A stretch of 12,477 nt of DNA from a virus. The notes beneath the pieces are model-generated. The model was not told where the DNA came from. It ran no database searches and saw only the letters and a program-made list of their open reading frames with translations. The position numbers and the translations under genes are program-made. Of this stretch, positions 1-12,427 are shown piece after piece. The stretch lies in the UHGV virus genome UHGV-0072520. One strand, 5' to 3'. Numbering within the stretch: position 1 is the first letter of the stretch; each line of letters begins with the position of its first letter.

Positions 1-49
1 AGACTTGGATGATAGACTTCATGCCTTTGATTATTAGCTGATAGAAGAA

Positions 50-412
50 ATGTTAAAGCTATTTGCAAAGTACACCTCGATTGGTGTGCTGAACACACTT
101 ATACACTGGGTGGTTTTTGGTGTATGTATTTATGCCGCGCATACAAATCAGGCTCTGGCAAACTTCGCAGGTTTCATAGTAGCTGTGAGCTTTAGCTTCT
201 TCGCGAATGCAAGATTCACATTCAAAGCATCGACTACAACGATGCGCTACATGTTATACGTGGGATTCATGGGAACCTTGAGTGTTGTCGTCGGGTGGGC
301 TGCTGATAGATGTGCACTTCCCCCAATGGTCACCCTTATCACTTTCTCCGCCATCAGCCTGGTGTGCGGTTTCGTATATTCAAAGTTCATTGTCTTTAGG
401 GATGCGAAATGA
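50..412 (+). CDS. gtrA: GtrA, bactoprenol-linked glucose translocase (flippase), small polytopic membrane protein
   Basis: 120-aa hydrophobic ORF; N- and C-terminal sequence ([24 protein letters not shown] ... [13 protein letters not shown]) recognised as GtrA of serotype-converting Shigella/E. coli phages. Its stop overlaps the next start (ATGA at 409-412), indicating translational coupling. Confidence 0.88.
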
Positions 413-1335
413 AGATATCTCTTGTAGTTCCTGTCTTCAATGAAGAAGAAGCGATACCAATTTTTTATAAAACGGTACGTGAATTCGAAGAGTTGAAGCC
501 ATATGAGGTGGAAATTGTTTTCATAAATGACGGCAGCAAAGACTCTACAGAGTCAATAATTAACGCTCTGGCTGTTTCTGATCCGCTAGTTGTTCCGCTG
601 TCATTTACCAGAAACTTTGGTAAAGAACCTGCGCTGTTCGCTGGTCTTGATCACGCAACTGGTGAGGCGATTATCCCGATTGACGTTGACTTACAGGATC
701 CAATAGAAGTTATTCCTCACCTGATTGAGAAATGGCAACAAGGTGCGGACATGGTTCTGGCTAAACGCTCTGACCGCTCTACTGATGGTCGATTGAAGCG
801 CAAAACAGCTGAGTGGTTCTATAAGCTACATAATAAAATAAGCAATCCGCAAATTGAGGAGAACGTCGGAGACTTCCGTCTGATGTCTCGTGAAGTAGTT
901 GAAAATATCAAGCTTTTACCCGAGCGTAATCTGTTCATGAAAGGTGTGCTTAGCTGGGTTGGCGGCCGTACTGATGTTGTCGAATATGCACGCGCTGAGC
1001 GTGTTGCTGGTAGCACTAAATTCAACGGATGGAAGTTGTGGAATTTGGCACTTGAAGGAATAACCAGCTTCTCTACATTCCCATTACGCATCTGGACTTA
1101 CATCGGCCTTCTCGTTGCTGGAGTTTCGTTCCTTTACGGAGCTTGGATGATTATTGACACACTTGCATTTGGTAATGCTGTCAGAGGCTATCCTTCCCTT
1201 CTCGTTTCCATATTATTCCTTGGTGGAATTCAGCTAATCGGCATTGGTGTTTTAGGGGAATATATTGGAAGAATTTATGTAGAAGCAAAACATCGCCCAA
1301 GATATTTAATTAAAAAGGAAAAACATGAAAAATAA
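409..1335 (+). CDS. gtrB: GtrB, bactoprenol glucosyltransferase (GT2 family)
   Basis: 308-aa ORF beginning [20 protein letters not shown] with FINDGSKD and DVDLQDP motifs typical of GT2 undecaprenyl-phosphate glucosyltransferases, plus C-terminal transmembrane segments; directly follows gtrA. Confidence 0.9.
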
Positions 1336-2629
1336 TAACACACATATAATGATAATCATATATGCTTTAGTTATATGCATGCTTACATCAAATGTTTTTA
1401 TGATTAATACTAGTGATTTTTACAGATCGGTATTTCCTTTCATAGGTGAAATAAATACATTTGATGGAAATCTAACACTAAATTATGAATTAAAAAAAGA
1501 TTTTTTGAGTGTTTTCTCCTATGATTACATTAGCTCTTATAGTTACATCTTATATATTTATGCTTATATTATTTCTTTCTTTACAAATTATTTAGATTTG
1601 AGATTGCTATCAAGTATTCTTAAGATTATTTTTATAATAACATTATACTCATTATTTAGAAATATCACCAAGGAAAATGGCGCTAAATTTTTGGCGATAT
1701 TTTTCATAATCGCTCTCCCTATGCTATCAACCTCAAACCTAGCATTCTTCTCATCTTTTTATCAAGAGCAAATAGTAATCATAGCATTACCAATAGTCTC
1801 TTTATTTATAAGCGGCAATAATAAAAAAGATATACTCATTACTTTCATAGCTGCCACCCTCATAGCTTGCTCAAAGAGCCAGTTCTTTTACCTTCCGTTA
1901 ATAATAGCAATAGCTTATGGCATATTTAATCGAGATATGTTTAAGTTTAAAATTTTATTAACAGTTTTATCAATGTCGCTTTCTTTAATGTGCATTTGGG
2001 GTTCCTCTGGTGCGGCAGCATTTAATAAATACCATGCAAATTATTTTGGTATATATGAATATGCAAAAATCAATAATATTGAGATCGAACAAAACGTAGA
2101 CCAAAAATGCATTGGCGTAGATGCGTGGGGAAATAAATTTAATCTAGAACATGGAGCTATACAAACAACTTTAGGTGGCGATTGTTTTGGTAGAAATACT
2201 TCTGCTGGTTTCGTCGATGTAATTAGATGGGTCGCTAAAAACCCCAGCATTATTTATAATCTTCCAGTTGATGCCGGGATTAAAACACAATATACTGAAA
2301 ATTATTTCCATGTATTTAATGGAATAAAATTAATACAGGGGAATACAGGGGCATTGTCATACTTAACTGAAGTCAAGGATTATTTATTTAAAGATCTTAG
2401 GTTTGTTATTTTATTCATTACAATGTTGTTATCAATCATCTTCATTAGAAAGAAACTCTCAATTTTACTCTTTACCGTATGCTCGTTTGGGACATCACAG
2501 TTATACGTCTCTTTTTTTGGCGAGGGTTACAGAGATTTAGACAAACATCTTTTCGGGATGAATTTCGCATTCGACTTAACTATATTTATCGTGATGTGTC
2601 TTTTAGTTAGATTAAAATTCAAAAAATAA
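1325..2629 (+). CDS. Type-specific O-antigen glucosyltransferase (GtrC-type), polytopic membrane protein; serotype specificity undetermined
   Basis: 434-aa highly hydrophobic ORF immediately after gtrAB, the canonical position of the type-specific gtr gene. Strikingly AT-rich compared with flanking DNA. Start overlaps the gtrB stop by 11 nt; an alternative in-frame ATG lies at 1349. Confidence 0.72.
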
Positions 2630-2660
2630 AATATTGCTGCGCCATGATTAACATGGCGCA
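2621..2660 (-). terminator. Intrinsic terminator between convergent gtrC and tailspike genes
   Basis: Perfect 9-bp inverted repeat tgcgccatg / catggcgca (2638-2646 and 2652-2660) with 5-nt loop attaa. The + strand A-run at 2621-2636 gives a U-tract for - strand transcripts just past the tailspike stop. May act weakly on + strand transcripts too. Confidence 0.5.
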
Positions 2661-2666
2661 AATTAC

Positions 2667-4628
2667 TCACCAGTCTGCTAAAACTATCGCCCCACGCATA
2701 AATGCACGGTAAAAAGGAGATTCCCCTGCAGGGAAGCTGAAATGGAGAACTGGTGCTTCCCCAACAGCGTAATAATCTTCCGGTTTGAATCCAAACATAA
2801 ACGTTTGGCTTGAAGAAAGAGTCACACTTGCAATATCTTGATAGCGAATACCGTCTTTGCTTTTACCCATAAGAAAAAGTCCGTTTATAGGATTCCCGCC
2901 ATTAAGATTGGATATCTCAAGCCAAGCCCCTACGCCCTTACTGTAGCTACTGCAAAGACATAGAGATGCATCAGAAGTTTTAAAAGCAACTCCACTGACA
3001 TCGACTCCTTGCTGGGTGGTTTCATGGTCCCCATCACCAGAGCCACTTAATATCCTAGTTGGCCATGCATTCTTCGTAATTGTCTGGTCACTTGAGCTTG
3101 GATCCGCAGGCATAACATCCTTAAGCAATTCCTGTAGTGGCCAATGTTTACCACTGCCGGCTCCACCAAATAGATAGGTCTTTGTTTTTAGCTGTCTTGG
3201 ATAAGACTTGGATGCTAGTTTAGTAACTAACTCTTGAAGTATTCGATTAGTGCGTATCCTGTCAGTAATACCTGGGTCAGCTTCACCATCCCATACAAAT
3301 GCACCAAAATTCCCATTGCCCGCAGCGCCAAATATTTCAGCGCCTCCAACTACCTGATCAATATCACCACTTATATTGCTTCCACTAAATAGAAACGCAC
3401 CAACTACAGGGATAACATTAGGAATTTCAGTCATTTTGGAAATTACACCAAAATCTAATCTCATTTTCACAAGATCGGCGTTAATTCTGGTTTGTAAATC
3501 TCCTGTTGCAGCAGTTGAATATGAGTTAACTAAAGCCAGATCATAATTTTTTGAATACCATTGATTGAACGGTCCGCCAGGAGGAAGTTGGCACACCATA
3601 AGCAATGTTTTGTTTGTAACACTACGAAGAGTTTCAATCTTTGCATCCTGATCTGCAACACTGATCCCTCTAGCGCCTGGCTCGTCATATACTGCATATG
3701 CTACAACCGCAGGATGAGTGTCTATGGATTTAACAAAACTTGGCAGATCAGATATAGCAAGCGGGTCTTGTTCGGTTCCGATAGAAACTTTTAGACCTGC
3801 TGTTAAAGCATTATCTAATAACTTAAACTTGTCGCCTTCATCATCTACAGAACCACTAAACCCCAAATAATGGTGGATACTATTAAATCCTAATTGCTTT
3901 ATAAATAACAACTCAGCCAAGTCATAAGCAGAGCTAACGTAACAAATTTTCACTTTTGCATCGAAAGATACATCTACTTCTGAAGTCGCTAATATTGATC
4001 CAAGATTGTAGCGAGTCGTGTTAATCTTAAAATTACCGATTAATTTCTGCCCCTTAGATTTCAGCTTTTTTGTGATTTTATACTCTTTGTCTTTGATTCC
4101 TACAACATCCTTCCCAGTATCAAATGCAGCCTGAATGGCGTCTGACCAATCATCATCAACAACAAGATTTGCATAATCTTCGATGTAAGCATATACATCA
4201 CTACGCTTATTAAGGTTGTCTATATCAGTCTGCTTTGCGGCCCCATTTACTAAATCCACACCACCAGGTGCAGCAAGCTCCTGTCTTAACTGATCAGGAT
4301 CGTACTTCAGCACATTAGGAAAATAGAATTGCTGTGCACCATACGCATCATAACCAGCCATAGAATGGCCTTGCACGGTAACGAATTTGGCAATCTGTCC
4401 GTTATATACAGGATAACCAGCAGCGTTAATGATGATTGGTTGAGAAACAGGAACGTGAGAGCCGTCTTCGTTCTCTATATAAACCTGAATCTGGTTTTCA
4501 GGATTTACCGGGTCCGTGTCAATTTTACCGATATAAATTTTGCCATTGGCTACGGCTTTAAAAGAACGCGCCATAGTGAAGAGTTGCGATGGCATTGATA
4601 CGATCACATTGGCTGTAATGTCTGTCAT
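2667..4628 (-). CDS. Tailspike protein: P22-type N-terminal head-binding domain, divergent C-terminal receptor-binding/depolymerase domain
   Basis: 653-aa ORF. The first ~115 aa ([13 protein letters not shown] ... [38 protein letters not shown] ... [13 protein letters not shown] ... NVLKYDPDQ) closely resemble the conserved head-binding domain of P22/Sf6/HK620 tailspikes as I recall them. The remainder is not recognisably the P22 endorhamnosidase. RBS GGAG lies 8 nt upstream of the ATG on the - strand. Confidence 0.85.
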
Positions 4629-4686
4629 TTAATTTGCTCCAGATACAAGGAATAGCCGCAGCATGGCTACGGTGAATTTTGGGCAT

Positions 4687-4709
4687 AAAAAAACCCAGCC
4701 GAAGCTGGG
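4687..4709 (-). terminator. Intrinsic terminator (- strand) upstream of the tailspike gene
   Basis: Stem cccagc / gctggg (4694-4699 and 4704-4709) with loop cgaa. Seven A's at 4687-4693 on the + strand give a U7 tract directly after the hairpin on the - strand. Confidence 0.5.
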
Positions 4710-4761
4710 TCGTTGCGTTGGTTATCTGTCAGTAGTTATGTACTGGCTGAAGGATTTGTAC

Positions 4762-4792
4762 AAAAAAACCACCTGACGGTGGGTTAATTTTT
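4762..4792. terminator. Putative bidirectional intrinsic terminator
   Basis: Stem ccacc / ggtgg (4769-4773 and 4778-4782) with loop tgac, flanked by an A7 run upstream (4762-4768) and ttaattttt downstream (4784-4792), so either strand gets a U-rich tail. Confidence 0.45.
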
Positions 4793-4810
4793 GCATTTAC
4801 CTGGGCCATA

Positions 4811-4839
4811 TTGACTACTTATAAAATGAGATCAATATT
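4811..4839 (+). promoter_or_regulatory. Candidate sigma70 promoter for the small + strand gene
   Basis: TTGACT (4811-4816), 17-nt spacer, AATATT (4834-4839); the -35 matches consensus at 5 of 6 positions and the -10 at 4 of 6. Lies about 35 nt upstream of the ATG at 4876. By-eye match only. Confidence 0.3.
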
Positions 4840-4875
4840 TAATCGCCCAATAATGGGTGTATGTTGAGGTATATC

Positions 4876-5055
4876 ATGGCGAAAAAACCAGGTGAAAACA
4901 CAGGAAAAAACGGCGGAATATACCAAGAAGTTGGCCCACGCGGCGGTAAGAAAGACAATTTTGCCACCGTCAAGGACAACGAAAGGCTTCCACCAACAAC
5001 AAAGCCAGGTCATGGCTGGGTATTGGATAAGCGAACTCCAGACAGCAAAAAGTAA
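4876..5055 (+). CDS. Small YjzC-like protein (function unknown)
   Basis: 59-aa ORF MAKKPGENTGKNGGIYQEVGPRGG ... LPPTTKPGHGWVLDKRTP. The G-x-Y-x-E-V-G ... W ... KRTP pattern resembles the YjzC-like small-protein family as I recall it. GAGG RBS 5 nt upstream of the ATG at 4876 (the ORF track's upstream ATG at 4861 lacks an RBS). A terminator follows. Confidence 0.5.
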   Translation: MAKKPGENTGKNGGIYQEVGPRGGKKDNFATVKDNERLPPTTKPGHGWVLDKRTPDSKK

Positions 5056-5061
5056 TAATCA

Positions 5062-5084
5062 AGCCGGGTCACTCCGGCTTTTTG
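5062..5084 (+). terminator. Intrinsic terminator after the YjzC-like gene
   Basis: Stem agccgg / ccggct (5062-5067 and 5074-5079) with loop gtcact, followed by a T5 run. It overlaps the 3' end of the convergent - strand gene, so it may serve both. Confidence 0.55.
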
Positions 5085-5434
5085 ATATGTCGCTCGCAGA
5101 ACTCAACAAGCCTGCTCATTAAGTAGCAGTAAGTCTCGTTGGCTCTTCCTGGTTCAACATCAACACCTACCCTTGAGCAGATATCGAATGCCATGTGAGC
5201 GCACTCATGGGCAATAGTAGATAGTTTGCCATTGAACACGCCTATCACATGCAAAACACCATTCTCGCTACTCATTGTATGAGACGCTCCGTTGGCGTCC
5301 GAGTCATGCACGTCAACGCCAAGTTTTTGATGCAGGCGTTGCCATTCTGGAAAGTCTCTACAAAACACAATTGTACCGCTCTCAAAGAGCGGAACGAGCA
5401 TCTTTGGTACGTTTCCAATGTTAACTTTTTTCAT
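5069..5434 (-). CDS. Hypothetical protein with HExxH zinc-metallopeptidase-like motif
   Basis: 121-aa ORF containing IAHECAHMAFD (H-E-x-x-H) followed by several Cys/His residues (DICS, YCY, FCERH) that could complete a metal site. AGGA RBS 4 nt upstream of the ATG on the - strand. No family assignment possible without a search. Confidence 0.55.
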   Translation of the reverse strand: MKKVNIGNVPKMLVPLFESGTIVFCRDFPEWQRLHQKLGVDVHDSDANGASHTMSSENGVLHVIGVFNGKLSTIAHECAHMAFDICSRVGVDVEPGRANETYCYLMSRLVEFCERHIKKPE

Positions 5435-5468
5435 GGTATCCTGCGCAAAACTAAGGAGAGTTAATTAT

Positions 5469-5954
5469 ATGAAAAAACCACTGTTAATTATCCCGCTTCT
5501 GCTGGCTGGGTGCGCAAAAGTAAGCGACTATCAGGCAAGTTGCGAGCAACGCTATCCAAAGCTTAGCGATATGGCTAATTGCCTTGATGCCAGCTTGAAG
5601 AACGACTCTCGCATGGCATCAGCACCAACACCTAAGCTGTATGTCCTTGCTGCGAAGATGCTCGGGCAAGGTGTCGATGAAGGCAAGATAAGTGACACAC
5701 AGGCAAGACTTGAACTTCAGAATCTTTATGTTCAATTACAAAGCCAAGAACAAGCACAACAAATAGCACAAAGCCAAGCATTCCAGCAGGCTTTATTGAA
5801 TTATCAGGCTGTAAACACAATGCAAGCGATCGAGCAAAAAGCGCGCCAGCCTGTTATAACTCAACCTTACCCAACACGCGTTGACACATATACAAACTGC
5901 AATTCAGGATTTGGAAACACGGTAACATGCAACAGTAGCAGTAATATCAGGTAG
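5469..5954 (+). CDS. Prophage-encoded lipoprotein, predicted outer-membrane localisation
   Basis: N-terminus MKKPLLIIPLLLAGC has a classic signal peptide plus LAGC lipobox, and Ala at +2 argues against inner-membrane retention. GGAG RBS about 10 nt upstream of the ATG at 5469 (the ORF-track start at 5418 adds an unlikely extension with no RBS). Gln-rich predicted helical middle; 161 aa. Confidence 0.7.
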   Translation: MKKPLLIIPLLLAGCAKVSDYQASCEQRYPKLSDMANCLDASLKNDSRMASAPTPKLYVLAAKMLGQGVDEGKISDTQARLELQNLYVQLQSQEQAQQIAQSQAFQQALLNYQAVNTMQAIEQKARQPVITQPYPTRVDTYTNCNSGFGNTVTCNSSSNIR

Positions 5955-5968
5955 TTACATCTTATCTT

Positions 5969-7816
5969 TTATTGCTGTTCTGCTGTAATTTGGCTTGAAA
6001 GTATAGGGCGTATCGCATTTGCAGCATTATTTAGCGCTCTTTCATAGGCTGGTGTTCCTGCTTTGGTGTTTGCCAAACGTAAGAGAGCATTCCTTGCTGC
6101 TTTTGACTCATACAAGCGCATCATTGCACCGAAACCAGCCTCAAGCCCCATTGATACGCCAAGAGTCGCAGTTGCGCCAATCGTCCTTATCCTGTTGGCT
6201 TGCGATTGCCCCGTCTGAGTTACTACATTTGCGGTGTCTGACCTTGCTGTTTGCTGTAGAACTTCATGAAGAGAATCAAGCTCTTTCATGTGCTTTCCAG
6301 AAAAAATAGTGTTGTAAATTTCACCGCCTGACTGAGATTTCAGCTTATTAACTTCAGTGATGAACTTGGCTGGAGAGTCCCCGGCCTTTTCCGCTATTTT
6401 GCTGACGTAAGCTGCACGCATAGCATCTTTCCCCTTATCATCCAGTGCGCTCCAGATTCGTTTCACGTCAGATGGTTTTCTGCTTAATACAACGGTATTT
6501 ATAAGTTCAGGACTGGCTTCACTGCTTGCCTTGTTGAGCTTGTTGGCAATGTTTTTATTAAGCACCTTATTATAAACGTTTGCATAATCGGAATTTGCTT
6601 TAAGGTATTTTGCTGCGTCTGATGCACCGAGGTTTTTAGCAACTGCGTTACGAAGGTCTTTTGACATTGCATTCTCTACCATATTGGTAGCTGCTTTTGC
6701 CTGGTTGGGGAAGACCATAGCATCTCCCTGAACATTAGATCTAAATGCTGTTCTGTGCTGACGCAAGAGATCAAACGTAACATCCAAATCAGTTGCAGGG
6801 TTTGCTAATTCTTCACGTAGGTTACGCAAGGATGTAAGCAGGCTTTGATTGGCAGACGTCCCAAGCCGTTCCTGTCTTGCGATCGCTGTATTCAGAGCAT
6901 TCATGGTATTTGTTGTATCAACTGCGGCATTACCCATTTTATTGGTGACGTCATTGATAACAGCGCCAGCGGCATCCTTCCGTCCCCTTAACGTGGTGGT
7001 CAGAGATTTCACCACATCATCAGGGTTGTACTCACCAAAACGGTCAAAATAATTACTTACCAGTTTACTACGCGTTGCATATTGCTCCGCTCGCTTTGAT
7101 CCTGTCCCGAGCAAAGCCCCCTCGGCATCCTGAGTAAGGCCGCGAGTGAAAGCATTTTTCGGTGGGATGACATCAGATGTCATTGGCGTCACACCCATTG
7201 ATTCTGAGGTGGCAATTTTTTTCGCTACTTCTGGCGCGATATCGCCTTTTATAGCCGTTATTCCACGCCCTATTCCCTTTGCTGCTGCGGAAAGAACACC
7301 CTGAGCGGCAAGGTTAACTCCGGCATTTTTAGCTGCATTTTGTGCGAAATCGCCTTTCTGATTTGCGGCCTCTGCCAGTGAGCCAATAGCCATGCTTCCT
7401 GCCGTTCCAACTCCTGGAACTAAATACCCGCCAATTGTTTCTCCAGCTTGCGCATAAGGGTCTGTCGGTCGATCGACAGGGCGATAAACATCATCCAAAA
7501 CCTTGGGGCCACCAAGCCCCTGGCTGATTGCATTAATCAGACTTGCGCCACCCTGCAATACGTCAAATGGTATGTTTACCAGACCACGACCAGCCTGTTC
7601 TGCAATTTGCCCTGCACTTTGACCACCAGTGAGCCAATCGCCAGCTTGTTGCATCAATGATGGTTCTTCCCGTGTTGGTGCATTATTGGCCTGATTAACT
7701 GTTTGTTGCTGAACAGCCTGACCAGCAAAATACTCATCAATGGCGGTGCCAATATCTTCGGTGCTCGTACCATCAGGAAAGGTAAATGTCTTACCGTTTG
7801 CAGTTACTTTCATCAT
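5969..7816 (-). CDS. Ejection (DNA-transfer/injection) protein, P22 gp16-like
   Basis: 615-aa Ala/Gly/Gln-rich ORF without obvious enzymatic motifs, upstream of and co-oriented with the tailspike, matching the position and approximate size of P22 gene 16. Start overlaps the upstream stop (ATGA at 7813-7816). Assignment is by synteny and composition, not verified homology. Confidence 0.6.
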
Positions 7817-8805
7817 TCCACCGTAAATTGAATGCCTGATTTTGAGGTATATGATCCGGATTGACTCTGCTGCTGTTGGGTATTTGTCGGTTGTTGGTTA
7901 TTGCTCTGTTGTTGACTATTTGCAGCACTTGAAACCACCAAAGCATCATAAACGCGACCAGACTGACCACGTAATGAGTTATATTGGCCCTGCATTTTTC
8001 GCATTTTTGTTTCAGTAGCAGCCTTGGAATCACCAGGCTGAGGCAGGTACATTTTGGAATACTCCTGCATCTCTGGCAGAGTAATTGCTGCACCTGTTTC
8101 TGGGCGCAAAATTGCATACAAGGCGTCTCTCGCATTTACCATATATTGCTGCTCCGCTGGTGATAGGCTTAAATTTGCAATAGTCCCATCACCAAGAGAG
8201 CGATTTATTAATGCAACTCGCTTAGGGTCAATGCTTTTACTAAGCTGATTCATTGAGTCCATTGAATCTTTTAATCGCAAAGCAAATCCTGCCGCCTTCT
8301 TGGAACCCTCATTAGCCTTATCTATGATGCTTTGCGCTTGTGGCAAACTAATTGGTTTAATGCCATCACCAGATATAGGTTGGTTTAGTTTTCCGGCTTC
8401 CTCGCTGCCATCGGTGTAATACTTAGTTACCGAGCCATCAGGATTGGTTTCAACCTTAAGTAATTTCTTAGCATTGGGATTAATTCCCGCCGCTGCCGCA
8501 AATGCCGCTGCACCATCTGGATCCGCCTTTAACATTTGCGCGTACTGATTGTAATTCTGCATTGCGACTGTTGGTGCATATGCTGACGTTAACGCATTTG
8601 CTCGGCTAATATCCTGCCCTCTCGCCTGAAGTGCCTCGCCAGCCTGATTGCTGCGGATTGTCTCTGCCAGTCTGCCTCGGTCAATCTCACGACCAGCCAT
8701 CTTGTCCTGAACAGCAAACGCCTTTTCTGGTCCAAGCGCACCGAGAGACATAGTAGTCAGCATGTGTGATAGCTGCTCTGGATTCTGGATACCTGTCTGA
8801 ATCAT
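7813..8805 (-). CDS. Ejection protein, P22 gp20-like, apparently missing its 5' end
   Basis: 330-aa ORF from the first ATG, but the frame stays open upstream to 8919 with no start codon, which suggests the N-terminal coding part was deleted. Translationally coupled to the gp16-like gene. Assignment is by synteny. Confidence 0.5.
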
Positions 8806-8835
8806 CCAGTCAGCATTAGCACCAACGCGATTTAA

Positions 8836-9192
8836 CCTGTCCTTGTTGTCAGTAATGAATTTACTGTAGGCTTCCGGTCCCTGAGAAAGAGCGACGTTAC
8901 CGTAATAGTCCCCTGTCGGTTAGGGAAGCTGCGTGTTGAGCTGGAAGCAACAGAGAACAACCTCATTGATAGTGAATGCCATGTTGCTGAACTGGAAGAA
9001 GCACTACGCGACAAGCAGGCGTTACTTGAAGCCTCAGAAAAGCGCATAGCAGAACAAAGCTCGATTGTTACAGCCGCTGAAAAACTGGTTCGCTGTAAAG
9101 GCCGCTATCACAGTGAGCAAAACTATCGTGCGCTGGCTGCATTGTTTGGCGTAACAGTGCCGGATTTACCACCACTGCAAGCAGATGATTAA
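8836..9192 (+). pseudogene. 3' fragment of an early-region gene (coiled-coil C-terminus), no start codon
   Basis: Open frame 8836-9189 with no ATG/GTG/TTG start. It encodes ...KLRVELEATENNLIDSECHVAELEEALRDKQALLEASEKRIAEQ...LFGVTVPDLPPLQADD and ends 10 nt before the next gene with operon-like spacing (AAGGA RBS at 9191-9195). Confidence 0.35.
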
Positions 9193-9202
9193 GGACTAAC
9201 CT

Positions 9203-9775
9203 ATGACCACTATTACCAAAGAGCGACTACTGACAATCAAGCAGTGGCGCGAAACATACGGACCTGGTAGCAACGTTGTACTGCCAGCAGAAGAAGCGGA
9301 AGAACTGGCACGAATTGCTCTGGCATCGCTGGAAGCAGAACCTGTAAGCCAAACTTACAACTTGCCACAAACGCACTTTGAACAGGTTGCTGACCTTTAC
9401 GAAATGCAATTTGATGACGGACGCACTTGTGCCTTTCATACTGATGCACAAAAGGCTGCGCAATGGCTTCGGGCATGCGACGGAAACAGGGTTCAGGAAT
9501 ACGTGAAACTGGAGCGACTGCAGAACGCGCTATCGGGCAACTCTCCGGTAATTCCGGATAGTTGGATAAGCTGTAGTGAGCGAATGCCGGAAAAGAATCA
9601 GAACGTGCTTATTTCGGTGAATTTCGATAGCTCTCTGGTTGAACCGCTAATATGCTCCGCACGCTATACCGGAAGCACCTTTCGGCGCGGAGATGCAACG
9701 ATTAAGCCGGGTAATGGTATTGAGCAAGCAACTCACTGGATTCCGCTACCGGAACCGCCGCAGGAGGCGAAATGA
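9203..9775 (+). CDS. DUF551-like phage early protein
   Basis: 190-aa ORF whose C-terminus (WISCSERMPEKNQNVLI ... ATHWIPLPEPP) matches the DUF551 signature common in lambdoid/P22-like early regions, as I recall it. AAGGA RBS 7 nt upstream. Confidence 0.68.
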   Translation: MTTITKERLLTIKQWRETYGPGSNVVLPAEEAEELARIALASLEAEPVSQTYNLPQTHFEQVADLYEMQFDDGRTCAFHTDAQKAAQWLRACDGNRVQEYVKLERLQNALSGNSPVIPDSWISCSERMPEKNQNVLISVNFDSSLVEPLICSARYTGSTFRRGDATIKPGNGIEQATHWIPLPEPPQEAK

Positions 9776-10032
9776 TGGATGTAAAAGAGAAGGTTTTGCA
9801 GGTGATGCGTTCCCGGGCTGCCCTGCAAGATAAAGCTCTCGGCGGGGAATATCCATTCAGAATGGCAACCTGGAATTTGCGGTTGGCAATGGAGAAGGAA
9901 TTTCCTGATGAAGAATGGCGTTCGGCAGATTTGCGCAAAATTCTTATGGAGATTGCTAAAGACGGAACAGTATCTAAAGATAACCATGCCAGCCGGATTG
10001 GTCAGGCGGTATGGAGACTGGAGGTGCGGTAA
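9772..10032 (+). CDS. Hypothetical small phage protein
   Basis: 86-aa ORF; start overlaps the upstream stop (ATGA at 9772-9775), indicating translational coupling within the early operon. Confidence 0.55.
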   Translation: MMDVKEKVLQVMRSRAALQDKALGGEYPFRMATWNLRLAMEKEFPDEEWRSADLRKILMEIAKDGTVSKDNHASRIGQAVWRLEVR

Positions 10033-10313
10033 TGGCTAACCTGCAACTTGCCGTCAAAGGTGAATACTTCGATGCCATGATTCGCGGAGATAAAACGGAA
10101 GAGTATCGCCTGTGTAATGACTACTGGAATAAGCGAATTATGTTCCGGGAATATGACCGCCTGATTATCACAAAGGGATATCCGAAGCGCGACGACTCCA
10201 GTCGCAGAATTGATGTTCCGTATGGAGGATATGAAGTGAAAACAATCACACACCCCCACTTCGGTGATAAGCCGGTAAAGGTATACGCGATAAAGGTGAA
10301 TATCAATTGCTAA
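10032..10313 (+). CDS. ASCH/PUA-like domain protein
   Basis: N-terminus MANLQLAVKGEYFDAMIRGDKTEEYRL resembles the ASCH-domain signature (compare E. coli YqfB ...FQDDILAGRKTITIRD). Start chosen at the ATG overlapping the upstream stop (TAATG) with GGAGGTG 7 nt upstream. The ORF-track start at 10011 lies inside the previous gene. Confidence 0.58.
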   Translation: MANLQLAVKGEYFDAMIRGDKTEEYRLCNDYWNKRIMFREYDRLIITKGYPKRDDSSRRIDVPYGGYEVKTITHPHFGDKPVKVYAIKVNINC

Positions 10314-10424
10314 ATTAGTGGCATAGCATAAAGATGCTTGCATTAATGAAGTGTGTATAATAACGCCTCATCAATTGTAAACTACTGAAATAGCAAAAAA
10401 TGCATATTAAAGAGGATTCGAAAA

Positions 10425-10616
10425 TTGAAAATGTTCATGCAAATAGACAGACGCATAGATCTTAATGGCAATTCATACTTAGTTAGATGCGAAGAGAGGC
10501 CTAACGGTGAGTGGCGTGTATATGATATTGACCGTAAGATCAATATCAGCACCATGAACAAAGACACTGCCTTTGATGAATGGAAAGCTGAAGCTAAAAA
10601 ACAACATAATTCGTAG
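10425..10616 (+). CDS. Hypothetical small protein
   Basis: 63-aa ORF. AGAGGA at 10411-10416 is well spaced for the TTG at 10425; ATGs at 10431 and 10437 are alternatives. Followed by a terminator. Confidence 0.42.
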   Translation: MKMFMQIDRRIDLNGNSYLVRCEERPNGEWRVYDIDRKINISTMNKDTAFDEWKAEAKKQHNS

Positions 10617-10658
10617 AATTACAAAAACCCTAACCAATTGATGGATTTCTTTTATCTG

Positions 10659-10683
10659 AACTCGCTACGGCGAGTTTTGTTTT
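10659..10683 (+). terminator. Intrinsic terminator
   Basis: 7-bp stem aactcgc / gcgagtt with loop tacg, followed by ttgtttt. Confidence 0.55.
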
Positions 10684-10695
10684 ATGGAGATGATT

Positions 10696-10995
10696 ATGGC
10701 CTGTTCAACATTCAACCCTCTAACGTTACAGAAATACCAGCCAGCCCCTGAAGATTTATGCTCACTGTGTGGCGGAAATCATGGTAAAGCCGCCATGATT
10801 GAATGTAAGGACAAAATCCACATTTGCCTTAATTGCGTTGATGTCCTCGTTGATATCAAAAATGAGAGAGAAGATAAAAAGCGTAGCGAGGCTGTTCGAG
10901 CCTTAGATTCATGGATGCGAGATGGGTATAGTGCCGCGCAAATTTATGACTTAGCAATATCAAAAGGCGAAATACCAGGAGTGCGCATCGAATAA
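10696..10995 (+). CDS. Cys-rich small protein, possible zinc-ribbon
   Basis: ORF with paired CxxC motifs (CSLCGG ... CLNC) separated by about 18 residues. Start chosen at the ATG at 10696 with GGAG 6 nt upstream; the ORF track begins at 10684. Confidence 0.5.
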   Translation: MACSTFNPLTLQKYQPAPEDLCSLCGGNHGKAAMIECKDKIHICLNCVDVLVDIKNEREDKKRSEAVRALDSWMRDGYSAAQIYDLAISKGEIPGVRIE

Positions 10996-11035
10996 GACGT
11001 AACCAATATTTGTATTGAAGAACTGAAAGAACACC

Positions 11036-11061
11036 AAGCCGCCTGATGGCGGTTTATTTTT
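11036..11061 (+). terminator. Intrinsic terminator
   Basis: Stem ccgcc / ggcgg (11039-11043 and 11048-11052) with loop tgat, extendable by A-T pairs, followed by tttattttt. Confidence 0.55.
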
Positions 11062-11076
11062 GCCTGGAGAATTAAG

Positions 11077-11268
11077 ATGACCGATACCAGCCTGATTCCT
11101 GAGAAAGAAGTGATGAACAAGCTCGGTGTTTCATCACGTCAGACAATCTGGAACTATACCAAACGGCACGGATTTCCGAAGCCAGTCAGAACCCACCCCA
11201 AATCATACCTTCGTGAAGCTGTTGAGGGGTGGATTCTTAACGGTGGCGTTAATCAGAAATGCTCCTGA
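11077..11268 (+). CDS. AlpA-family phage transcriptional regulator / putative excisionase (HTH)
   Basis: 63-aa ORF MTDTSLIPEKEVMNKLGVSSRQTIWNYTKRHGFPKPV..., typical of AlpA/Xis-like small HTH proteins next to P4-type integrases. GGAG RBS at 11065-11068. Confidence 0.75.
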   Translation: MTDTSLIPEKEVMNKLGVSSRQTIWNYTKRHGFPKPVRTHPKSYLREAVEGWILNGGVNQKCS

Positions 11269-12427
11269 TGTGCCAGAACAATTTATCAGCGTGAAGCTCA
11301 TACGCTTTGCGCTGAGCCTCTATCCAGTCGTGTTTATTGTATACGGACATTATCCCGCCAAGTTCATGACCGAGCATTCGCTCAGTAACATGAGGCTCGA
11401 CATTCATCTCGGACAGACGTGTAACAAGCGTTCTTCTGAAATCATGTGTTCGCCAGTAACCTATATCCATCCCTCCCCTTATTCTATTTACGAATCGGTT
11501 GGCTGCAGCGATGCTGATCGGTTTGTTTATGTCTTCTCCAGGGAAAAGAACATCATTGTACGTTGTCATGGCCTTTTCGAGGAAAGGCTTAATTTGTTCG
11601 AAGATTGGACGGCGGATAACATTACCCATCTTGCTATGCTCTTTCGGTACGGTCCATACGTTTTCCAGCAGGTCAAATTCTGTCTTTTTTGCCAGCCTAA
11701 GCTCTGAGAGCCTCGCCCCCCACATCATAAGCATCTGATGAAGTAGCTTATTTGACGTAGACGCACGGCTTCTTTCAATAGCAAGCCAAATCTTAGCCAG
11801 TTCGTGATACGACAGTACCCGATCCCCTACCTCAGCGCGGGAGCCGAAGTCCCTTGGTTGGATGCTCATAATTGCGCAACTATCTATCAACTGACGCCGC
11901 ATGCACCAACTTATTGCTGACCTTAGTTGACTTAGCACCTGCCTTGCTCGGCGTGGATTATCTCTTTCTTCTTCGGTAAGCAGGTCAACCCATTGCTTAA
12001 CCGTGATAGAAGATGCCGGACGATTAGGAAAGGCGTCATGCATGCGCTTCATAACCGTTGATCGGTAAAGTGCCTGGGTCTTTTCTCTGAGAGTTGTAGA
12101 GACGTAGTTGTCGAACCAGTAGTCGAGACACTGGGCGACCGTCATGGAGTTCTCCACCTTCTCTTCAAAATAAGTGCGTGGATCCGTTCCTGAGAAATAG
12201 AGCTTTCGCAAGTCAGCAGTGATCTGTCTGGCATCCTTCAAAGACAGGGATGGGTATCGACCAAGCCCAAGTCGATTAGGCTTGCCATGCCAGCGATAGC
12301 GGTACTGGAACTGGATGACCCCCTTCGGTGAAATTCGTACGCTGAGGCCATCGGCATCAGCCACTTCTTGTGGGCCCGAATATGGTTTACCATAAATAGT
12401 ACGCAGTTTTGTGTCGCTTATAGCCAT
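11249..12427 (-). CDS. int: Tyrosine site-specific integrase, P4-type (DUF4102-like N-terminal arm-binding domain)
   Basis: 392 aa. N-terminus (SDTKLR ... DGLSVRISPKG ... YRYRWHGK ... LGLGRYPSLSLKDAR) fits the P4-family integrase pattern. C-terminal catalytic residues are visible: HDFRRT (H-x-x-R) and the tyrosine in MSVYNKHDW. Confidence 0.92.
   Translation of the reverse strand: MAISDTKLRTIYGKPYSGPQEVADADGLSVRISPKGVIQFQYRYRWHGKPNRLGLGRYPSLSLKDARQITADLRKLYFSGTDPRTYFEEKVENSMTVAQCLDYWFDNYVSTTLREKTQALYRSTVMKRMHDAFPNRPASSITVKQWVDLLTEEERDNPRRARQVLSQLRSAISWCMRRQLIDSCAIMSIQPRDFGSRAEVGDRVLSYHELAKIWLAIERSRASTSNKLLHQMLMMWGARLSELRLAKKTEFDLLENVWTVPKEHSKMGNVIRRPIFEQIKPFLEKAMTTYNDVLFPGEDINKPISIAAANRFVNRIRGGMDIGYWRTHDFRRTLVTRLSEMNVEPHVTERMLGHELGGIMSVYNKHDWIEAQRKAYELHADKLFWHIRSISD

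Follow-up and report, generated by a model that had tools for sequence, protein, structure and literature searches.

An AT-rich type-specific gtr gene of the GtrIV/YfdI family, with a history separate from that of gtrAB, in a deleted P22-like prophage of Escherichia coli

The window, i.e. the whole stretch of 12,477 nucleotides analysed here, comprises a P22-like E. coli prophage that has undergone deletion. Its left part carries three genes on the plus strand. The first, gtrA (positions 50 to 412, G+C 0.455), encodes a GtrA/flippase-like protein of 120 aa (Pfam GtrA_DPMS_TM, E = 5e-14), which shares 91-99% amino acid identity with the GtrA proteins of Sf phages and of other E. coli prophages. 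The second, gtrB (409 to 1335, G+C 0.424), encodes a bactoprenol glucosyltransferase of 308 aa (GT2; Pfam Glycos_transf_2, E = 3e-31). The third gene (1325 to 2629, 434 aa) lies immediately 3' of gtrA and gtrB on the same strand, the placement of a Gtr(type)/GtrC gene, and overlaps gtrB by 11 nt (1325-1335). Both this overlap and an in-frame ATG at codon 9 of the third gene (1349 to 1351) had been pointed out in a preliminary description of this DNA, and both are present. Between the third gene and a convergent tailspike gene is a G+C-rich, terminator-like hairpin of 10 pairs (2637 to 2661), predicted to be a bidirectional terminator and likely one; its stem is kept in the Enterobacter hormaechei locus L003, where the loop differs. 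The tailspike gene (2667 to 4628, minus strand, 653 aa, G+C 0.412) encodes an N-terminal P22-type head-binding domain (about 4290 to 4628; Pfam Head_binding at residues 1-113) and a receptor-binding domain (2667 to about 4290). To its right follow P22 injection-protein remnants, a DUF551 gene and, in the right part of the window, a tyrosine integrase gene (11249-12427). Together with the tailspike, these place the third gene on a prophage.

A prophage remnant between dacD and sbcB of E. coli 160-11H1, in which the third gene is annotated as a hypothetical protein, is 99.5% identical to positions 1-4594 of the window. The third gene is carried by only one of 5426 complete E. coli genomes, and the cassette was found in P22-like prophages at two chromosomal sites.

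The rest of the prophage is heavily deleted (4629-11250): head, lysis, replication and immunity genes are absent, and gtrABC and the tailspike are intact. Of the P22 injection translocase domain, only the C-terminal third finds a match in ORF 7813-8805, at the N-terminus of the latter; after this ORF come a non-coding stretch, genes of the ea-region type (DUF551 at 9203-9775) and the integrase. At the place of the P22 mnt/arc/ant region, immediately upstream of the tailspike start, terminator-like hairpins, four or five in number, are clustered (4656-4782), followed by small overlapping ORFs without family matches (4819-5122). At the other end, just left of window position 1 (L001, 11985-12000), the sequence ATCGATCGAT holds two GATC sites about 55-65 nt upstream of the gtrA start. 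It recalls the Dam/OxyR phase-variation switch described for the gtr operons of P22 and Salmonella (PMC2909390), and the window is cut just inside this region.

Aligned over its full length with GtrIV of Shigella phage SfIV, the product of the third gene shows 43% identity (E = 2e-110); its identity to an E. coli yfdI-type protein is 45% (L011, E = 1e-108). From these matches the gene is assigned to the type-specific Gtr glucosyltransferases. The precomputed database Pfam annotation of an identical protein (P0001) includes PF27133 YfdI_N, while the Pfam copy that was searched, which does not hold the PF27133 model, gave only a sub-threshold match to DUF2142. The best NCBIfam match was WsfD (NF051875; 64.1 bits, E = 1e-17, residues 12-243), and membership of that subfamily was rejected, as the curated cut-off is 80 bits. 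The protein is a polytopic inner-membrane protein with a GT-C-type fold; an AlphaFold2 model of it, built on a 30-sequence alignment, has pLDDT 92.6. It keeps all 25 columns found invariant over the family in a 30-sequence alignment of which it is a member, among them D31, R34, Y146, E148, K184, E400, R403 and D404. Against the Enterobacter ortholog, dN/dS is 0.16. Position and family identity agree with the earlier assignment of the gene as the type-specific member of a gtrABC cassette, and this allele is a rare new member of the GtrIV/YfdI family. With only 43-45% identity, specificity cannot be carried over from the characterised enzymes. Since GtrIV adds alpha-1,6-glucose to a GlcNAc of the S. 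flexneri O-unit (PMC3259042) and YfdI adds the O16 side-chain glucose (PMC10578602), one may guess that the acceptor is a GlcNAc.

The preliminary description had estimated by eye that ORF 1325-2629 has roughly a quarter to a third G+C, well below gtrA and gtrB. The ORF exists and the computed value is 0.296 (GC1 0.31, GC2 0.30, GC3 0.28), compared with 0.455 and 0.424 for these two genes and with 0.449 for the window outside the third gene (binomial z = -11.1). Flanks near half G+C had also been described; this is true only further to the right (about 50%), the local flanks being at 41-46%. Among all 1305-nt windows, the one with the lowest G+C starts at 1331, and maximum likelihood placed the change points at about 1258 and about 2635. 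The right edge is sharp and lies 6 nt past the stop codon. On the left, where the shift had been located right at the overlap with gtrB, the fall in G+C starts about 70 nt before the ATG, within the last 25 or so codons of gtrB (60-nt windows: 0.43 at 1190-1249, 0.30 at 1250-1309 and 0.18 at 1310-1369). Most of the compared cassettes have an AT-rich gtrB 3' end. Two further G+C dips were seen in the window, at 3800-4100, inside the tailspike receptor-binding domain, and at 10200-10700, among small ORFs upstream of an excisionase-like gene (minima 0.33 and 0.35-0.37, respectively).

The sliding-window and codon-usage analysis that had been proposed as a check identified the third gene as a low-G+C outlier whose codon use is AT-biased beyond what its protein would impose. 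Written in the codons that the remaining window genes prefer, the protein is expected to have a G+C of 0.355, against 0.296 observed and 0.454 for those genes; about 63% of the deficit remains, so about two-thirds of it lies in amino acid composition. The residues FYMINK make up 44.5% of the protein, compared with 27% elsewhere. Both figures would fit an AT-richness that arises as a by-product, from the need of a polytopic membrane glycosyltransferase for Ile, Phe, Leu, Asn, Lys and Tyr. However, family members from high-GC genomes are encoded at 0.64-0.71 G+C, with 12-15% FYMINK and 33-39% GARP, so that amino acid composition follows the DNA bias and not the fold. An AT-richness forced by the fold is contradicted by these homologs; moreover, GC3 is low too, and GtrA, also a membrane protein, stands at 0.455. 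We consider the by-product explanation very improbable.

The preliminary description had read the AT-rich island as fitting a modular exchange of the specificity gene from a low-GC donor. With a recent import, the AT-richness would be the un-ameliorated composition of the donor bacterium. The third gene does deviate from its neighbours in composition and codon use (0.296 against 0.449, GC3 0.28, and the 0.296 against the expected 0.355), and its occurrence in a single complete E. coli genome would also suit a newcomer. Two protein searches (single-sequence and profile), a genome-contig scan with 29 loci and look-ups of four additional contigs nevertheless brought up no low-GC organism with a homolog; many hits were nameless, the named hosts were all Proteobacteria, and no locus flank was below 0.41 G+C. 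The AT-rich clade is also deep, reaching down to about 32-45% amino acid identity and AT-rich in every host, so that the bias far outlasts what amelioration would allow. Unrelated third-gene families are equally biased. The low-GC donor is therefore unproven and disfavoured, and we regard recent import from such a bacterium as improbable.

The compared cassettes point to a property of the gene class instead. In 14 of 14 cassettes, among them those of SfI, SfII, SfIV, SfV, HF4s and several E. coli, Enterobacter, Pantoea and Citrobacter prophages, the third gene has a G+C of 0.28-0.38, compared with 0.40-0.47 for the gtrB of the same cassette. Several of these third genes have no detectable homology to that of the window. 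As AT-richness is common to all type-specific gtr genes tested, it tells nothing particular about the window. Within the family, members borne by prophages or cassettes have 0.28-0.41 G+C in hosts of 0.43-0.68, including Comamonas and Acidovorax (flanks 0.63-0.68), an Aeromonas plasmid (0.58) and Halomonas (0.57); a member in a Mu-like prophage has 0.31 against 0.53. Distant chromosomal relatives (24-30% identity), on the other hand, are host-like at 0.48-0.71 G+C, most of them at 0.58-0.71; three have 0.48, 0.49 and 0.53 with flanks of 0.51, 0.62 and 0.55, respectively. One relative (L037) is distant yet AT-rich (0.32 against a flank of 0.49), and a gtrB-like gene lies about 0.5 kb downstream of it.

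Some of these loci differ in arrangement. In three Comamonas and Acidovorax loci (L015, L017 and L019; 58-61% G+C, outer flanks 63-68%) the entire gtrABC is AT-rich (gtrA 0.36-0.44, gtrB 0.39-0.47, third gene 0.31-0.41), and there the entire cassette looks foreign, not the third gene alone. The Mu-like prophage member (L049, 8001-9359; 36% identity, 0.31 against a flank of 0.53) has no adjacent gtrA or gtrB and directly follows a tail-fibre assembly gene, in a prophage adjoining purB. In Halomonas sp. (L022, 4520-7347), gtrA and gtrB are divergent from the third gene and do not form one operon with it.

Because the clade is AT-rich in every host in spite of its divergence, the bias is an old one that has been kept up, and low G+C is a lasting trait common to prophage- and cassette-borne type-specific gtr genes. 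It may be that prophage-borne gtr(type) genes are actively kept AT-rich, a reading that we find possible but would not bet on. Possible causes are the binding of xenogeneic silencers (H-NS, for example), a toxic membrane protein that has to be translated slowly, or AT-biased mutation combined with weak codon selection in phage accessory genes. The span of the bias over deep divergence and over hosts of 0.43-0.68 G+C, the convergence of non-homologous third-gene families on AT-richness and its absence from chromosomal relatives argue for such maintenance, but a long-lived AT-rich mobile gene pool explains the pattern equally well. An explicit statement on low G+C in gtr(type) genes was not found in the open-access literature that could be searched; the Verma laboratory reportedly noted it around 1999-2001. 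AT-richness itself, a general property of a known type, is not news.

The history of the third gene was then read from its junctions. In E. coli MFDS1001074 (L039), a prophage at the same dacD site encodes a GtrA 99% identical to that of the window. The two loci are near-identical over 1-608, about 80% identical over 609-1029 and identical over 1030-1289, a pattern that marks gtrB itself as a recombination patchwork. Mismatches appear from 1290, homology is lost at about 1306-1316, and a non-homologous third gene of 421 aa follows. Matches to 900-1800 were found in 24 complete E. coli genomes; except in 160-11H1, their alignments end at 1278-1329, and those of the 13 closest E. coli gtrB alleles all end at 1316. 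From these ends the joint is placed in the last gtrB codons, at the Shine-Dalgarno sequence AAGGA (1315-1319), just upstream of the gtrB/third gene overlap. The deep cassette junction (1306 to 1324, plus strand), where homology to cassettes with other third genes stops, comprises this Shine-Dalgarno sequence of the third gene and the codons for the variable C-terminal tail of GtrB. That tail co-varies with the third gene: it is LIKKEKHEK in the window and LMKKENHEK beside the 80%-identical ortholog, and has other sequences and other lengths in other cassettes.

The preliminary description had taken the overlap and the ATG at 1349 as the splice point, which does not hold, as homology ends before the overlap, at about 1306-1316, and the one recent exchange that could be dated breaks at 1161/1162, within gtrB. 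The ATG at 1349 is incidental and was rejected both as a start codon and as a splice marker: the Enterobacter ortholog of 80% identity has ATA at this codon, although its ATG 1325 and its MKNN start are conserved.

The recent exchange is seen in L006, a P22-like prophage at bio-ybhB, a chromosomal site different from that of the window. Mismatches to the window are dense up to 1161, number only five over 1162-4353 (99.8% identity, 5 SNPs) and are dense again from 4354. Outside this block, identity drops to 82% in gtrB (409-1160) and to 95.6% in the head-binding region of the tailspike; dS amounts to 1.66 for codons 1-250 of gtrB, compared with 0.004 for the third gene. Besides the third gene and the terminator, the shared block contains the 3' end of gtrB and the receptor-binding domain of the tailspike. 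In this recent exchange, gtrB and the head-binding domain served as homology arms, and the third gene, the hairpin and the receptor-binding domain moved together.

The E. hormaechei locus L003 is 95% identical to the window in GtrB, 78% in GtrA, 80% in GtrC and 73% in the tailspike receptor-binding domain, and dS of its segments ranges from 0.33 to more than 3. In seven enterobacterial cassettes, all with a third gene of the GtrIV/YfdI type, to which the congruence test was confined, GtrC distances were correlated neither with GtrB distances (Spearman 0.31, p = 0.16) nor with GtrA distances (Spearman 0.13, not significant). The discordance that had been suggested as a check was thus found in these seven cassettes, whereas across classes the entire cassette is broadly congruent. 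L006, L039, the distances and the dS values all indicate that the ancestry of the third gene is discordant with that of its neighbours. The earlier proposal that the third gene has a history separate from gtrAB is borne out by these comparisons, that with E. hormaechei included, and its modular exchange by the non-homologous third gene behind an identical gtrB stretch in L039 and by the L006 block, 99.8% identical beside a gtrB at 82%. The specificity gene had been proposed as the unit of exchange; it is indeed exchanged, but the recent unit is larger, a block of 3.2 kb to which the receptor-binding domain of the tailspike also belongs.

The tailspike receptor-binding domain has its best match among sequenced phages at 43% (phage TH27), too low for a serogroup to be inferred from the tailspike. 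In the E. hormaechei phage that carries the 80% gtrC ortholog, the 73%-identical receptor-binding domain and the third gene form a pair that stands behind a 205-aa anchor of the phiV10/epsilon15 type, not behind a P22 head-binding domain. These observations raise the idea that the third gene and the receptor-binding domain are one portable 'recognise-and-mask' unit for a given O-antigen, with selectively maintained AT-richness; we put it forward tentatively and think it somewhat less probable than the contrary. The two genes are convergent and share the predicted terminator. Under this idea, recombination in conserved arms would carry the pair from one podophage genus to another (P22-like in E. 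coli, phiV10/epsilon15-like in Enterobacter), and the AT-richness of the glucosyltransferase would not be inherited from a donor. No description was found in the searchable literature of phages of different genera inheriting the third gene and the receptor-binding domain as a single block. O-antigen modification genes are known to sit behind the receptor-binding protein in Lederberg- and Uetakeviruses (PMC10408124).

An obligatory linkage of the two was rejected on the evidence of a second cassette, that of L039. The receptor-binding domain of L039 occurs at 99.3% identity in two genomes without the L039 third gene, with the break at the stop codon of the tailspike gene. In at least one of these two genomes, E. 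coli CUPF06, a different gene of 314 aa lies alongside the L039-type receptor-binding domain. In CUPF06 (L048, 3043-3987), this unrelated hypothetical gene lies beside the tailspike in place of a gtr cassette, and it may be an alternative O-antigen-modifying gene.

Taken together, the best explanation is very probably that the third gene belongs to a prophage gtrABC cassette, is AT-rich as a trait of its class and has been exchanged by homologous recombination. In the Gtr pathway, GtrB loads glucose onto undecaprenyl phosphate and GtrA flips the loaded glucose to the periplasm. The 434-aa GT-C-fold protein (1325-2629) would then, by analogy with its relatives, transfer glucose from Und-P-glucose to one position of the O-antigen repeat. 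The gene would move among phage backbones through homologous recombination in conserved flanks, gtrAB serving as the left arm and either the tailspike head-binding domain or the intergenic terminator as the right arm. The incoming module would carry its own ribosome-binding site and hence the last few codons of gtrB, and in the lineage of the window the tailspike receptor-binding domain would come along. If so, this rare allele probably causes a change in an E. coli O-antigen that would escape serotyping based on gene clusters. The base-level breakpoints indicate how specificity genes may be swapped, the module bringing its own ribosome-binding site and rewriting the C-terminus of GtrB, and the possible co-travel with the receptor-binding domain bears on the prediction of phage host range and superinfection immunity.

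Conserved gtrAB genes combined with highly divergent serotype-specific third genes are textbook knowledge for Shigella and Salmonella phages (PMC2629481, PMC3259042). In Salmonella, Davies et al. (2013) found the GtrA, GtrB and GtrC trees to be incongruent and recombination to ignore gene boundaries (PMC3688519). The Salmonella gtr operons are like the window in their conserved gtrAB, hypervariable gtrC and mosaicism, and modular exchange of gtr third genes is already published for Salmonella (PMC3688519). The study was made in Salmonella and does not include the E. coli allele of the window, and term searches in it gave no mention of G+C content or tailspike (PMC3688519). The co-travelling tailspike domain is the sole mildly new angle of the present locus.

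As compared with single enzymes, the third-gene protein shares with WsfD the character of a GT-C-type transferase using a lipid-linked hexose, but falls under the curated threshold (64 against 80 bits). GtrIV of SfIV is likewise encoded by the third gene of a gtrABC cassette, is of similar length (437 against 434 aa; 43% identity), is AT-rich (0.326) and has large periplasmic loops (PMC3259042). It differs in 57% of its residues and resides in a Mu-like myovirus without an adjacent tailspike, whereas the gene of the window is in a P22-like podovirus. YfdI of the E. coli K-12 prophage CPS-53 resembles it in the PF27133 YfdI_N domain (45% identity to the yfdI-type L011 protein), in its yfdG-yfdH-yfdI arrangement and in the low G+C of the yfdI-type gene (L011, 0.276). 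It is nevertheless a distinct allele, with a junction overlap of 4 nt compared with 11 in the window, and the CPS-53-type locus has no tailspike partner.
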